Source: a virus (taxonomy: Duplodnaviria > Heunggongvirae > Uroviricota > Caudoviricetes). From it: a stretch of DNA of 40,186 nucleotides. Made by a program: the position numbers and the translations under genes. Shown piece by piece: positions 5,100 to 33,197 of this stretch. Location: positions 1-40,186 of the IMG/VR virus record IMGVR_UViG_2728369554_000009; one strand, given 5' to 3'. Every line of letters begins with the position of its first letter. The first letter of the stretch is position 1. The notes under the pieces were generated by a model. It was not told the DNA's origin. It saw only the letters and a program-made list of their open reading frames with translations, and did not search any database.

Positions 5100-5684
5100 T
5101 TATTGTTTGTTTTTTTCGTTCTGGCTGATGACAAATTCAATGTAACTTTCGATCTTTGCCTTCTCTGTTTCGGGTAACAATGCGTAGCGCGAGCGGTCAT
5201 AGTTGATAGTCGCAGGGTCGTGCGGGTGAATCAGTAATTCATAGCCGTGACGCCCGAATGCGGATGCAACATTCTCCAGGGTGGAAATGGAAACGCTGAC
5301 CTCATTGTTTAACAGGCGGCTGATTGTCACCTGGGCGACGCCGGATGCGCGGTGAAGTTTTCCCTGTGTTGAAAGGTAGCGGCTTTCGCTCATCCAGCGT
5401 TCCAGGTTGTGAGCCGCCAGCTGACCAATGTCGCTTGGGCCGACAGGCTGAAAACCTTCCTGAGAAAGCGAGCGATCGATATCAAGCCAGTTACGGGGTT
5501 TATTGGCGGCAGCTTCAATTTTTCGCGCAACCTGGTCGCCGATAACCTTCTTGCCAAGAGCCCAGCGGTTTACCAGATTTGCCTGAGTTCCAAGTTTTTC
5601 TGCCATCCGCGTCTGAACACCATTGAATTCACGGTCGATCAAGTCGTTGAGATTTTGCCTGCGGACGTCCTGGATACTTTTCAT
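5100..5684 (-). CDS. Prophage repressor with two HTH domains and no S24/LexA-like cleavage domain
   Basis: 194 aa. There are two XRE-type HTH segments (TRMAEKLGTQANLVNRWALGKK and LHRASGVAQVTISRLLNN). It is divergent from the Cro-like gene across a three-operator region. No Ala-Gly/Ser-Lys autocleavage module is visible. Confidence 0.75.
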   Translation of the reverse strand: MKSIQDVRRQNLNDLIDREFNGVQTRMAEKLGTQANLVNRWALGKKVIGDQVARKIEAAANKPRNWLDIDRSLSQEGFQPVGPSDIGQLAAHNLERWMSESRYLSTQGKLHRASGVAQVTISRLLNNEVSVSISTLENVASAFGRHGYELLIHPHDPATINYDRSRYALLPETEKAKIESYIEFVISQNEKNKQ

Positions 5685-29462: not shown

Positions 29463-29861
29463 TTAAGTGTATACCTCCTGCTGTTCAGTCGTGATTTTAC
29501 CCGGCAACACCTTTTTAGCTTTGCGCGGGTTAACCACATGGCCTTTAGTCCAGTACTCGTAGAGCACATCATCACACTCTTCCTGATACTGGATTACCTT
29601 ATCGCGGATTTCAGGGCGGACTTTGTTTGGACTGATGCTGTTCAACCAAGCTGCCAATTTTCGTAAAGCCATACAAATCATGGCTTGCACCCCTCCGGCA
29701 GAAGGTATGGTGATTTCCACCATACCCTTCGAGAAGCGTTGAGAAATCTTCTTATGTTGAGATTTCCAGTCTAGACCCATTCCCTCAACGATAGGTTTCA
29801 TTGGGGTGTACGGTTCGCCGTTGTGATTGACAACATAAAGTTCTACGCCGTGGAATGGCAC
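29463..29861 (-). CDS. P22 Ant N-terminal-domain-like protein (132 aa, GTG start)
   Basis: PFHGVELYVVNHNGEPYTPMKPIVEGMGLDWKSQHKKI matches the P22_AR N-terminal pattern as I recall it. The long Ant C-terminal part is missing. Confidence 0.6.
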   Translation of the reverse strand: MPFHGVELYVVNHNGEPYTPMKPIVEGMGLDWKSQHKKISQRFSKGMVEITIPSAGGVQAMICMALRKLAAWLNSISPNKVRPEIRDKVIQYQEECDDVLYEYWTKGHVVNPRKAKKVLPGKITTEQQEVYT

Positions 29862-30008: not shown

Positions 30009-30265
30009 TTACCTTTTCGGTAAATTTACATCGCACTCCTCTTGTGCCATAGTAATCGGGCACTGGCAAAATCCAGTGCCGGGATTGGTCTCCCGGATTA
30101 CTACAGAGGCACATATGCCGCATAAGCGGTTTTTTTATGTGTAAAGCGCACCTATTCTATGGTGGGCTGTGTGGGGGCACCGAAAGGTGCGCCGGGTTCC
30201 TTTGTAGCCGGTAAGACCAACTCTGCACAGTTCACCACCATCTGATTGGTCTCAGCGGTGGTGAT
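30009..30265 (+). repeat. Outer inverted repeat, arm A (operator plus structured leader)
   Basis: It is the reverse complement of 32938-33197. The first 95 nt are identical. After that there is patchy identity with paired substitutions. Confidence 0.85.
30024..30136 (+). ncRNA. Terminated leader sRNA, copy A, possibly C4-like
   Basis: An outer stem tagtaatc/gattacta (30050-30057 / 30096-30103) encloses hairpins ggcactgg-caaaat-ccagtgcc and ggga-ttggtc-tccc. Hairpin ccgc-ataa-gcgg plus T7 follows. The loop ttggtct is complementary to agaccaa in the downstream leader. Confidence 0.5.
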
Positions 30266-30290
30266 TAACCTAACTACAAAGGTGATCGCC

Positions 30291-30983
30291 ATGAATACCA
30301 AACCTTCCATCTTTTCCTTTGAGTCATCCTGCCAGATCCGTATGTTCATGATTGACGGAGAACCTTGGTTTGTCACCAAAGATGTGTGCAATGCTTTGAA
30401 TATTGATGTTACACAAGCGAGAAAACTTGATAAAAAAGGCTGGAACAAAAAGGGGCTGTATTCAATACAGACCCCTGGTGGAATACAAGAACTATCCATC
30501 GTTTCAGAATCAGGTCTCTACATCCTTATTCTGCGTTGCAAAGAGGCAATGACTGAGGGAACGAGAGCATTCAGATTTCTTGAATGGGTTACAGGTGAGG
30601 TTCTTCCTCAGATCCGCCGCACCGGAAGTTACATTAAAAACTCGCTCCCGCAGGAAGAACGCATAAAGATGGTTGCCGACCAGGTAGCCAACGCCACGGC
30701 GTCAGCAGTAATGCAGGCGATGAAGATAGAGAACAAAACCTACAGTGCCCCGCTGAAGCCCGGCTACCGCAGCCTGATTCATTCTCCGTCTGGTGTTCTC
30801 GGCCTGACGGAGAACTCACTGCTGATGAATCTGCTGAACCAGTTACAGGAAGACGGGCACGATGTATCGGGCGCGGCGGCGGAGCTGACCACCATGTTCT
30901 GCTACATCGTCGGTGTGAGCAAATGCCTGCGTGATATCCAGACGCACGCGGAATACATCAACGACAAGGCAGGGTTCTTCTGA
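30291..30983 (+). CDS. Antirepressor 1: Bro-N domain plus the shared C-terminal module
   Basis: The start MNTKPSIFSFE lies behind AGGTGA. QIRMFMIDGEPWFVTKDVCNALNI is Bro-N-like. The last ~81 aa are nearly identical to those of the 32255-32911 product. Confidence 0.75.
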   Translation: MNTKPSIFSFESSCQIRMFMIDGEPWFVTKDVCNALNIDVTQARKLDKKGWNKKGLYSIQTPGGIQELSIVSESGLYILILRCKEAMTEGTRAFRFLEWVTGEVLPQIRRTGSYIKNSLPQEERIKMVADQVANATASAVMQAMKIENKTYSAPLKPGYRSLIHSPSGVLGLTENSLLMNLLNQLQEDGHDVSGAAAELTTMFCYIVGVSKCLRDIQTHAEYINDKAGFF

Positions 30984-31033: not shown

Positions 31034-31058
31034 AGGCCGCTTTCGCGGCCTTGTTTTT
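31034..31058 (+). terminator. Intrinsic terminator after antirepressor 1
   Basis: Hairpin aggccgc-tttc-gcggcct followed by tgttttt. Confidence 0.75.
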
Positions 31059-31218
31059 AACGAATGCCACCGCCACCCGGGCGGGAATCCGCAGAACGCC
31101 CACCGCAGCGGGAGCCGTCAGCAGCAGTGTCGCTGTCGTGCTGACAACGACCGGCAAAGGCCTGAGTTGAAGCTACCAGAGACAACAAAACGAACAGTGC
31201 AGCAAATGCTTTTTTCAT
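31057..31218 (-). CDS. Small secreted peptide (53 aa) with an Excalibur-like D-x-D...DG-x-x-C segment
   Basis: The signal peptide MKKAFAALFVLLSLVASTQAFA is followed by GRCQHDSDTAADGSRCGG. A candidate promoter of its own has TTGACG, a 16-17-nt spacer and TATAGA. It is GC-rich, unlike its neighbours. Confidence 0.45.
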   Translation of the reverse strand: MKKAFAALFVLLSLVASTQAFAGRCQHDSDTAADGSRCGGRSADSRPGGGGIR

Positions 31219-31299
31219 TGTGAAATTTCCATCTATAAACCACCTCAATGTGGCGTCAATGAGTGTAGCACTGACTTTTGTTTCGTCCATAAAAAACTA

Positions 31300-31812
31300 C
31301 TATGCAGGCTTTTTGGATTTGTACGAATAATCCCACGGATAAACATTTCTACTAAGTGGAGCTGTATTCGTTCGTTCATGAAATAATTTTGTGAAATTCA
31401 ATACGGAATCCATCCAAACTTTTGCGTTAGCTTTGGTGTGTGCGGGCGGGTCCCAATAAGCTAGTAAGGCTGCATCTCTTATTTCATTGACTGCATATAT
31501 GAGATATGCGTTACTGGTTGGTTTTGGCCTGTAATTTCCTTGTTCATCAATCAATCCATATGACCACTCATCCCAACACTGTTCAGTACATGAGTATGAA
31601 TATGATGCATATTCACCAATATTGACATGAACCTTTCTGAGATGGAAGCCTAATACTTCCTCTGGTCTTTCAAAAAGAGTATCTTTTCCCAGATCAGGAT
31701 GATGACCATGACGCCAGTGTTGTTTAAAAGCATCTTTTAGCGAAATCAGAAAGTCATCAGTTTTAAACTCACCAGTAGGTATAACCTTCCCGCTATACTC
31801 ACTCAAAAACAT
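31300..31812 (-). CDS. YafO-like toxin-family protein (170 aa)
   Basis: LKDAFKQHWRHGHHPDLGKDTLFERPEEVLGFHLRKVHVNIGE and NAYLIYAVNEIRDAALLAYWDPPAH parallel YafO segments (..PDIFGRDALYDD..VAHIHLAN.. and ..AHLVYCQG..AWLLIAIL.PEPH), which I am recalling from memory. AT-rich DNA. Confidence 0.5.
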   Translation of the reverse strand: MFLSEYSGKVIPTGEFKTDDFLISLKDAFKQHWRHGHHPDLGKDTLFERPEEVLGFHLRKVHVNIGEYASYSYSCTEQCWDEWSYGLIDEQGNYRPKPTSNAYLIYAVNEIRDAALLAYWDPPAHTKANAKVWMDSVLNFTKLFHERTNTAPLSRNVYPWDYSYKSKKPA

Positions 31813-32125
31813 CGAATTCCTCTTCCTTCATATGCGTTTCTAATGAGTTAAGCTGGCGGAAAGATATCTCTTTTGATTCTGCAGATGAGAGCTTTTTTAT
31901 CCGCTTTATATTCTTTGTGATAGGAATAGACATTGTATGCACATCAGCGGATGCTCTTGGCTTTGTGCTGATAAAAATATGGCGCAATGCCGCATTTTCA
32001 CTATTGAACGAGCCAATAGCTGATTTACGTGCTACAACCTTACCAGTAAAAATACGACTCTTGCTACGCTTTGCATGAGTTCCGCTTCTTACCGGACCTC
32101 TCATCACGAATCCAAGTTTTGTCAT
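31799..32125 (-). CDS. Upstream partner of the YafO-like gene (108 aa, basic N-terminus, acidic tail EEEFDVFE). Putative antitoxin of an unrecognised family.
   Basis: It overlaps the downstream gene by 14 nt. A promoter with a perfect operator lies 43 bp upstream. Confidence 0.5.
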   Translation of the reverse strand: MTKLGFVMRGPVRSGTHAKRSKSRIFTGKVVARKSAIGSFNSENAALRHIFISTKPRASADVHTMSIPITKNIKRIKKLSSAESKEISFRQLNSLETHMKEEEFDVFE

Positions 32126-32167: not shown

Positions 32168-32182
32168 TTACCTTTAAGGTAA
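32168..32182. promoter_or_regulatory. Perfect operator upstream of the two-gene operon
   Basis: ttacctttaaggtaa. Confidence 0.55.
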
Positions 32183-32229: not shown

Positions 32230-32497
32230 AGGCACATCCCTGTGCCACCGCCCGTCAGAAGAACCCTGCCTTGTCGTTGATGTACTCCGCGTGGGTCTGG
32301 ATATCACGCAGGCATTTGCTCACACCGACGATGTAGCAGAACATGGTGGTCAGCTCCGCCGCCGCGCCCGATACGTCGTGCCCGTCGTCCTGTAACTGGT
32401 TCAGCAGATTCATCAGCAGTGAGTTCTCCGTCAGGCCGAGAACACCAGACGGCGAATGAATCAGGCTGCGGTAGCCGGGCTTCAGTGGGGCGCTGTA
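32230..32497 (-). repeat. Inner inverted repeat, arm B
   Basis: Reverse complement of 30741-31008. Confidence 0.85.
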
Positions 32498-32911
32498 TTC
32501 TTTTTTGTCTTCCAGCTTGATCGCCTCCATTATGGCGGGCATGAAGCCTGACAAGACCTTCTCCACTTTTGTTTCTTGTTGTCTTAAACGTTTCTCGCAT
32601 TCAATGAAGTAGCGTCGCACCTGGCGACCTTTTTCGTTACGCTCGACCATCGCCAGCTCTTTGGCTGTATCAAGGGTGAGGTGGTACTCTTTGCGGTTGT
32701 GGCCGCCTCTACCAGATGTTTGCTTTCCCAAATTGGAAAGCAAAATATAGTCTTGATTTTCAATGAATTCGTATTCTGATATGCGATTTGTAATCCATGC
32801 TGCAAACACCTTTTTAACACCTAAAAAAGCGTGCAGATCGCGGGCATTACAAAGTAGGGCTGTTTCGTTAGATATAGTGCCGTTGAATACGGGGATGAGT
32901 TGAGCGTTCAT
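32255..32911 (-). CDS. Antirepressor 2: AntA-type N-terminal domain plus the shared C-terminal module
   Basis: [37 protein letters not shown]...[29 protein letters not shown] is the AntA/AntB pattern. Confidence 0.75.
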
Positions 32912-33069
32912 GATGGCGTCTCCACTTAGCGAATTACATCACCACCGCTGAGACCAATCAGATGGTGGTGAACTGAACGGAGTTGGTCTTACCGGCCTAA
33001 GTGGTACCGGCGTCCTTTCGGACCCCCATTCAGCCCACCATAATTCTGGCATGACTGTGCTATACGCAT

Positions 33070-33182
33070 AAAAAAACCACGTCTGGCGTGGTATGCGCCA
33101 CTTAGTAATCCGGGAGACCAATCCCGGCACTGGATTTTGCCAGTGCCCGATTACTATGGCACAAGAGGAGTGCGATGTAAAT
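33070..33182 (-). ncRNA. Terminated leader sRNA, copy B
   Basis: Its body (33103-33156) is identical to copy A. The terminator stem differs (ccacg-ccaga-cgtgg plus T7), so the structure is kept while the sequence changed. Confidence 0.5.
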
Positions 33183-33197
33183 TTACCGAAAAGGTAA
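33183..33197. promoter_or_regulatory. Perfect operator at the head of leader B. Its mirror at the head of leader A is 30009-30023.
   Basis: ttaccgaaaaggtaa. Confidence 0.55.

Follow-up and report, generated by a model that had tools for sequence, protein, structure and literature searches.

Duplicated IsrK/C4-type RNA leaders upstream of two predicted antirepressor genes in an epsilon15/phiV10-like Escherichia coli prophage

IsrK- and C4-type RNAs in two facing leaders

The window, the whole 40,186-nt stretch of IMG/VR virus record IMGVR_UViG_2728369554_000009 analysed here, is an epsilon15/phiV10-like (Uetakevirus-type) Escherichia coli prophage. Two structured leaders, A and B, face each other in it about 3 kb apart, each lying 5' of a predicted antirepressor gene (ant). 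A sequence-only reading of this DNA, made without database searches, had described them as a duplicated element at 30009-30290 and, on the minus strand, 32912-33197. Those positions are correct, and the 95-nt identity it had noted was seen in pairwise alignment: positions 30009-30103 (plus strand) and 33197-33103 (minus strand) are shared without difference, and beyond this the leaders can still be aligned as far as both ATG codons, with 1-nt insertions or deletions between the copies. The RNAs and genes of the two cassettes are as follows.

30009-30290, plus strand: leader A, structured leader 5' of antirepressor gene A
30060-30136, plus strand: IsrK-type small RNA (sRNA) of copy A, 77 nt; Rfam isrK 74.7 bits, model positions 1-77
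30117-30136, plus strand: intrinsic terminator of copy A, stem ccgc/gcgg followed by T7
30155-30242, plus strand: C4-type RNA of copy A; Rfam C4 78.6 bits, model positions 1-87
30232-30264, plus strand: downstream hairpin of copy A, arms UCACCACC...GGUGGUGA, pairing site a2 in its loop
30291-30983, plus strand: antirepressor gene A, 230 amino acids; Pfam Bro-N, E = 1.8e-13
33197-32912, minus strand: leader B, structured leader 5' of antirepressor gene B
33070-33146, minus strand: IsrK-type sRNA of copy B, 77 nt predicted; Rfam isrK 67.7 bits, full 77-position model
32961-33045, minus strand: C4-type RNA of copy B; Rfam C4 61.2 bits, model positions 1-87
32939-32971, minus strand: downstream hairpin of copy B, presenting a2 UUGGUCU
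32255-32911, minus strand: antirepressor gene B, 218 amino acids; AntA/AntB domain, Pfam AntA E = 4.2e-26

Scanned against Rfam with curated thresholds, the whole window yields four matches in all, isrK (RF01394) followed by C4 antisense RNA (RF01695) in each leader. All four span their models end to end and exceed the gathering scores of 50 and 45 bits, respectively; the sequence-only reading had proposed such a scan, and both families were recovered in both copies. A third model, c4-a1b1 (RF03163), matched both copies at 39.9 bits (E = 7e-08; 30047-30099 and 33159-33107), below its gathering score of 46.7 bits, and the window copies were not counted as members of that family. Both downstream products are predicted antirepressors by Pfam domain. 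On these matches, each antirepressor gene is preceded by a known phage RNA switch, in the form of an IsrK-type sRNA and then a P1-type C4 RNA.

The hairpins and complementary words listed in the sequence-only reading are all present. The IsrK hairpins ggcactgg/ccagtgcc and ggga/tccc occur as described, as do the terminators, ccgc/gcgg in copy A and a different stem, ccacg/cgtgg, in copy B, each followed by T7; both terminator stems are short (5-6 bp) and weak (-7.5 and -7.6 kcal/mol). C4 of P1-type systems is released by RNase P from a precursor transcript, and the C4 part here has a conserved tRNA-acceptor-like basal stem with the 3' side ...CACCACCA. The hairpins gcacc-gaaa-ggtgc and gtcc-gaaa-ggac were also found, one per copy, together with the tcaccacc...ggtggtga hairpin that displays gattggtctc. 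In copy A this downstream hairpin competes with the C4 basal stem for 30233-30239, the common 5' arm (caccacc). Fold z-scores against shuffled controls were -2.8 and -2.9 for the IsrK parts and -4.5 (copy A) and -5.5 (copy B) for the C4 parts.

Salmonella IsrK is a 77-nt RNA by experimental mapping (PMC2330248). Given this and the full-length match to the 77-nt isrK model, the predicted transcription starts are G30060 (copy A) and 33146 (copy B). The numbering of Gifsy-1 mutant residues fits a start at the same G, a fit that could not be confirmed on the Gifsy-1 sequence.

Leaders of this clade are present in 467 of 5426 complete E. coli genomes (~9%), with a median of one copy per genome and a maximum of three. 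Recent gene conversion of leader B from leader A was examined and set aside, leader A and leader B each being found elsewhere in E. coli genomes as a single cassette at 100% identity. Because of these single occurrences, the 95 nt common to A and B may instead reflect ancestry within the same clade. The whole two-cassette segment is covered to at least 80% in only three genomes, with strain A_5 as the best match.

Pairing sites and their covariation

Each cassette carries two sets of complementary sites, named a1/b1, a'/b' and a2/b2 after the P1 record.

30085-30091, plus strand: a1 of copy A, UUGGUCU, loop of IsrK hairpin 2
30101-30109, plus strand: b1 of copy A, CUACAGAGG, IsrK linker, with a central G-U to b'
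30199-30207, plus strand: b' of copy A, CCUUUGUAG, loop of C4 hairpin 2
30214-30220, plus strand: a' of copy A, AGACCAA, internal single strand of C4
30246-30252, plus strand: a2 of copy A, UUGGUCU, loop of the downstream hairpin
30274-30282, plus strand: b2 of copy A, CUACAAAGG, overlapping the ant A Shine-Dalgarno (SD) sequence; AUG at 30291
33115-33121, minus strand: a1 of copy B, UUGGUCU
33098-33105, minus strand: b1 of copy B, CUAAGUGG
32997-33004, minus strand: b' of copy B, CCACUUAG
32983-32989, minus strand: a' of copy B, AGACCAA
32951-32957, minus strand: a2 of copy B, UUGGUCU
32922-32929, minus strand: b2 of copy B, CUAAGUGG, overlapping the GGAG SD; AUG at 32911

In both copies, a2 and b2 are complementary to segments of C4, with b2 over the ribosome-binding site, and a1 and b1 lie upstream of C4 on the same transcript. 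The complementarity of ttggtct to agaccaa, which is the a set, had been pointed out in the sequence-only reading; the b set, formed by the C4 hairpin-2 loop with the IsrK linker and the ant SD, had escaped it. The a sites are the same in A and B, while all three b sites differ between the copies and have changed together, and b is the predicted specificity-determining pairing site. Watson-Crick pairing of b' with b2 extends over 9 bp in A and 8 bp in B; shuffles of the target segment equalled the observed match in 2 of 20,000 cases for b2 of copy A, 45 of 20,000 for b2 of copy B, and 19 of 20,000 for b1 of copy B.

Cognate b duplexes have energies of -12 to -14 kcal/mol, including -12.0 (A) and -12.4 (B) for b'-b2, against mostly -4 to -5 kcal/mol for non-cognate b duplexes; the common a duplex has -9.2 kcal/mol. 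The exception among the non-cognate pairs, also at -9.2 kcal/mol and away from the SD, joins the C4-B loop to leader A at its GGUGGUGA arm. It was discounted as cross-regulation, as the partner is a hairpin arm and not the SD. The duplication, with common a sites and divergent b sites, is the only unusual part of the locus. Strain A_5 and one viral contig each have two cassettes with neither a nor b in common, whereas those of the window share a.

Homologous leaders were collected in two independent sets: a pattern scan of viral contigs gave 120 loci and 92 unique leaders, and 85 further leaders came from species-representative bacterial genomes spanning many Gammaproteobacteria. Helices and site pairs were also counted in an alignment of 89 homologous leaders. 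An a1 7-mer with its exact complement a' in C4, repeated as a2 usually ~32 nt further on, occurs in 90 of the 92 viral leaders, in four variants. All 89 aligned leaders have both a1-a' and a'-a2 paired, and three positions have changed on both sides. When the b sites were counted by column of alignment A2, no more than 51-71% of b'-b2 and 58-90% of b1-b' appeared paired. This approach was dropped because MAFFT loses the register of such short variable sites, and b sites were scored instead by a register-free longest-complement test with cross-locus controls. By this test, 87% of viral leaders match their own b' to b2 over at least 8 contiguous Watson-Crick pairs, compared with 1.3% across loci, and the own b'-b1 match is found in 66% (96% with G-U allowed) compared with 1.3% (12.8% with G-U) across loci. 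The viral leaders hold ~35 distinct b2 8-mers, which assort independently of the a variants. The bacterial set replicated these results, with 88% (b2) and 76% (b1) matching against 5% in controls, five a variants and 49 b cores. That b2 overlaps the SD is a conserved trait of the whole family. In these leader sequences, the a and b sets both covary three ways.

The helices of the Rfam type (IsrK hairpins, terminator and the three C4 helices) are 97.4% paired in the 89 leaders, with controls in slid register at 36-45%. Twenty-one pairs have changed on both sides, a number equalled in 0 of 500 shuffles, and the compensatory changes that had been suspected from the two copies alone are thus borne out in the wider alignment. 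The downstream hairpin is 92-99% paired and also covaries. Since it shares an arm with the C4 basal stem, both of the alternative pairings previously proposed for caccacca are conserved. In one leader clade (e.g. L014, L037, L056 and L086), the IsrK terminator and C4 are separated by an additional insert of ~45 nt that the window lacks (alignment A2 columns ~170-205). This insert includes a hairpin, a run of T and, frequently, TATAAT, and may serve C4 as a second, internal promoter.

Promoters, operators and neighbouring genes

The promoter and the element next to it fall within the identical part of the two leaders.

30025-30053, plus strand: promoter of copy A, -35 TTTACA, 17-bp spacer, extended -10 TGcCATAGT
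33153-33181, minus strand: promoter of copy B, identical to that of copy A
30009-30023, no strand: operator-like palindrome of copy A, TTACC-N5-GGTAA, directly upstream of the -35, centre ~-44
33183-33197, no strand: operator-like palindrome of copy B, TTACC-N5-GGTAA
4966, 5028, 5740, 8094, 8156, 10539, 13804, 29423, 30009, 32168, 33183 and 33563: starts of TTACC-N5-GGTAA in the window, 15 bp each
5100-5684, minus strand: candidate immunity repressor, 194 amino acids, Cro/C1-type helix-turn-helix (HTH; Pfam HTH_3)

A -35/-10 pair is present at the equivalent place across all clades of the 92 homologous leaders, which come from very different phages; its -10 ends 6-7 nt before the G at isrK model position 1, and the intervening sequence is free to vary. 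The palindrome adjoins the -35 at a constant position in all leaders of the epsilon15-like clade. Within the window, TTACC-N5-GGTAA occurs in 12 exact copies, 15 with one mismatch, against 0-0.8 expected, spread over the prophage much as C1 operators are spread over P1. The palindromes flank the 194-amino-acid HTH gene and fill its divergent intergenic region. They also occur 5' of several operons, apparently including terminase-region and tail-fibre-region genes. The 12 dispersed palindromes are probably an immunity-repressor regulon with the HTH protein as the likely, putative binder of TTACC-N5-GGTAA, and their number and placement support predicted control of the leader promoters by that repressor.

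Around the antirepressor genes, two further features were located.

30740-30983 and 32255-32500: near-identical C-terminal coding segments of antirepressor genes A and B
31034-31051: terminator after antirepressor gene A

By BLASTP, the last ~78 C-terminal residues of Ant A and Ant B are near-identical and their N-terminal domains (Bro-N and AntA) are unrelated, a pattern that points to domains having been shuffled onto a shared C-terminal module. For the related phage ZX5, lysogens have been found to shift towards lysis when the Bro-N antirepressor is overexpressed (PMC9782041). A truncated third antirepressor gene at 29463-29861 (minus strand) has a P22_AR_N domain (E = 5e-44) and is divergent from cassette A; it is without an IsrK/C4 leader of its own, and RefSeq marks its homologue in strain A_5 as a pseudogene.

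The region between the convergent cassettes holds, at 31300-32125 (minus strand), an open reading frame (ORF) of 108 amino acids and one of 170 amino acids that is weakly similar to YafO toxin. The latter scores below the Pfam cut-off, and RefSeq assigns its homologue to the YafO family. This toxin-antitoxin-like operon has its own palindrome (32168-32182), which by eye overlaps a TACTAT -10. Next to it lies an ORF of 77 amino acids (31057-31290), represented in strain A_5 by a 53-amino-acid RefSeq version with an N-terminus that by eye resembles a signal peptide.

Relation to known switches and mode of action

Based on their covariance-model matches and order of parts, the leaders are predicted to be immI-type modules, homologous to P1/P7 c4-icd-ant and Salmonella Gifsy-1 isrK-orf45-anrP. 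The P1 record has the same order as the window: the C1 operator Oc4 over the -35, promoter, a1, b1, c4, a2 and b2 at an SD, and then the gene. In the P1/P7 immI region the promoter is under the immunity repressor at Op51/Oc4, and the SD covered by b2 in P1 is that of icd, which is followed by ant (ant1/2); in the window there is no icd gene, and b2 lies over the ant SD itself. No icd-like ORF was found between b2 and ant in either cassette; the ant AUG comes immediately after b2 and the SD. The a and b sequences also differ from those of P1, the antirepressors are of the Bro-N and AntA types, and the module is present twice. The C4 score of P1 is 68.8 bits, compared with 78.6 and 61.2 bits in the window. 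The likeness to P1/P7 c4 logic put forward in the sequence-only reading is thus supported by the C4 matches, the P1 part order and the antirepressor domains downstream.

The P1 a1/b1 element also ends in a hairpin and U run at the position of the IsrK terminator. Its region scores 51.0 bits with c4-a1b1 and 35.1 bits with isrK on the same bases, so that in P1 and the window alike each model is below threshold where the other is above. The overlap extends over P1 (L122) 48217-48311 and window 30047-30136; isrK belongs to no Rfam clan and c4-a1b1 to clan CL00128. The c4-a1b1 model, described with c4 by Weinberg et al. 2010 (PMC2864571), covers the same two hairpins with a1 upstream of C4, without the terminator and with 13 nt before the IsrK start. 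A single homologous element that bears C4 decoy sites appears to underlie P1 a1/b1, Rfam c4-a1b1 and Salmonella IsrK. The terminator and operator are common to P1 and not new, contrary to the earlier suggestion that they set the window apart; both are found in the P1 record.

The Gifsy-1 system likewise has a 77-nt IsrK with its own promoter, a leaky terminator, a stable C4-like RNA and an antirepressor gene (Hershko-Shalev et al. 2016, PMC4825925). There, IsrK-C4 pairing was demonstrated by the compensatory mutations G28A/C162U and G31A/C159U, IsrK in trans raised an anrP translational fusion 139-fold, and antirepressor activation required translation of the upstream orf45 (PMC4825925). By our mapping, G28/G31 and C159/C162 would lie within a1 and a', in agreement with the alignment; a search for the Gifsy-1 leader among the fetched loci, made to check this numbering, found at best a locus with 9 of 14 diagnostic positions. 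The two systems differ in a type (UCU in the window, CGU in Gifsy-1 as deduced from the mutant numbering) and in phage background, Gifsy-1 being lambdoid and the window phage an epsilon15/phiV10-like podovirus. The orf45 (STnc1160) frame is absent in copy B and has 28 codons in copy A, and, unlike in Gifsy-1, no Q-like antiterminator gene was seen adjoining the window cassettes.

In APSE phages of Hamiltonella, isrK and c4 stand beside a BRO-N gene, with a' and b' matching the upstream region (Rouil et al. 2020, PMC7313666). That system is a single cassette for which a match to a distant polymerase gene was also reported, without analysis of IsrK as the a1/b1 carrier (PMC7313666). The CI RNA of satellite phage P4 is a processed stable RNA with complementary targets (seqA/seqC) up- and downstream on the same transcript, as here; it acts on transcription termination of replication genes and not on antirepressor translation. 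The basic picture has been known since the P1 work, and the window is a further case of a known switch.

The observed family membership, complementarity and covariation are very probably best explained by an immI-type switch in which C4 occludes the ant SD through a'-a2 and b'-b2 pairing and the IsrK decoy sites relieve the block. The direction of regulation, RNA processing and repressor binding in this scheme are taken from P1 and Gifsy-1 experiments or presumed by analogy. A sigma-70 promoter with an adjacent phage-repressor operator would initiate transcription at G30060 (A) or 33146 (B), and the majority of transcripts would end at the short intrinsic terminator, giving a 77-nt IsrK with a1 in the hairpin-2 loop and b1 in the linker. 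The -35/-10 and IsrK terminator are recognisable in both copies; the terminators are weak, and read-through is predicted from the Gifsy-1 analogy. The read-through transcript would yield a C4-type RNA whose a' and hairpin-2 loop b' are complementary to a2 and b2. With C4 on a2 and b2, ribosome binding would be blocked and no antirepressor made. IsrK, because it carries the same two sites, could compete for C4 in cis or trans and relieve the block, and Ant would then inactivate the prophage repressor. Since the cassettes share a sites but differ at b, translational repression should be largely cassette-specific, with partial cross-talk through a possible.

Several points weigh against this scheme. 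Homology is the basis for the predicted transcription start as well as for the presumed termination efficiency, C4 processing and Hfq binding. The b1 match of copy A is significant only with G-U pairs allowed, its uninterrupted Watson-Crick run of 5 not being significant alone. When the full read-through transcript is folded, its minimum free energy (MFE) structure has a1/b1 bound to a'/b' in cis, and such a cis fold corresponds to 'structure A' of Gifsy-1, found to be translationally silent (PMC4825925). The simple decoy picture may be incomplete, and, given this fold, a cis component as in Gifsy-1 may also be at work. Activation in Gifsy-1 needed translation of orf45, which is not conserved here. 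With its centre at ~-44, the operator lies upstream of the -35, and from there the repressor could repress, modulate or even activate the promoter.

Of the other explanations, those that concern the nature of the conserved unit fare worst. The sequence-only reading had proposed an RNA of ~110 nt with a three-way junction closed by tagtaatc/gattacta. The two arms are indeed complementary and pair in the MFE fold of 30050-30136 (z-score -4.5), but the 5' arm (30050-30057) shares bases with the extended -10 TGcCATAGT, whose last base is 30053, and lies before the predicted start. The isrK model and the mapped 77-nt Salmonella IsrK (PMC2330248) both begin 3' of that arm, and the stem is only 57-65% paired in the 89 leaders, its pairing being limited to the clade that shares the -10 sequence. 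On these grounds the junction was rejected as very improbable, and because its 5' arm precedes the predicted start we expect 77-nt RNAs (30060-30136 and 33146-33070, the span of the isrK model) in place of the ~110-nt species. In two leaders from viral contigs (L046 and L103), b1 UCACUAUGA is the reverse complement of the promoter -10 region CATAGTGA of the same leader, as is likewise the case for GATTACTA in the window; this may be why an 'outer stem' is seen in this clade, and no function for it is evident. It is extremely improbable that the conserved unit is instead a set of small ORFs, or a DNA-level repeat such as a recombination site. Mechanically called ORFs do run across both leaders, and in strain A_5 RefSeq has a hypothetical protein on the strand opposite leader B (L001 8884-9153, corresponding to ~32790-33060 of the window), where it annotates no non-coding RNA at either leader. 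Yet the ORFs differ in frame and length between copies that are separated by 1-nt insertions or deletions, the substitutions keep base pairs and not codons, and matches above threshold come from two independent covariance models. The conserved unit is RNA and not protein, as had been concluded before from the sequence alone, and the RefSeq entry is probably a spurious coding sequence call on structured RNA.

The remaining alternatives accept the RNAs and concern the step at which they act. In the strict Gifsy-1 mechanism, the leader would adopt an inactive cis fold until IsrK in trans remodels it, upon which a small ORF at the C4 AUG would be translated and ant expressed by coupling. The MFE folds of both full-length leaders, which pair a1/b1 with a'/b' in cis like structure A (PMC4825925), and a 28-codon ORF from the invariant C4 AUG in copy A (start 30160) agree with it, whereas the same ORF is only 3 codons long in copy B and varies between 3 and >48 codons among the 89 leaders. 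With no conserved orf45-like ORF in the family, that candidate was rejected, and on this comparison orf45 coupling cannot be the general mechanism. Nor would coupling be needed, as b2 lies directly on the ant SD in both copies and the SD is at the normal 8-nt spacing. We regard the strict Gifsy-1 mechanism as unlikely here. A mechanism of the P4 CI type, in which a C4-like RNA would pair with nascent a1/b1 and a2/b2, govern termination at the IsrK terminator or, farther downstream, through Rho, and thereby prevent ant mRNA from being made, is improbable. Its appeal lies in the weak IsrK terminator (5-6 bp, ~-7.5 kcal/mol) directly after b1. In P1, C4 repression of icd translation leads to Rho-dependent termination upstream of ant, which also counts in its favour. 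The Gifsy-1 authors raised the analogy themselves, citing P4 seqA/CI as a structural analogue of IsrK, but their co-expression test did not support it (PMC4825925). Nothing in the sequence requires such a mechanism, and the family-wide b2/SD overlap points to ribosome occlusion as the primary event.

For annotation, both leaders should be labelled as isrK/c4-a1b1 and C4 RNAs. The family-wide three-way covariation supports a unified view of P1 a1/b1, c4-a1b1 and IsrK, and the two cassettes, identical at a and different at b, are a natural test case for the specificity contributed by each site. We suggest tentatively that a and b may form a two-part address, with at least five a variants and ~35-50 b variants in independent assortment, that allows for many orthogonal switches, and that the two antirepressors of the window may be semi-coupled through their shared a. 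If this is true, the system would be an RNA counterpart of heteroimmunity in which IsrK is a dedicated sponge for its own C4. Each IsrK in the window would then also partly titrate the C4 of the other cassette via a, and firing one antirepressor would lower the threshold of the other.

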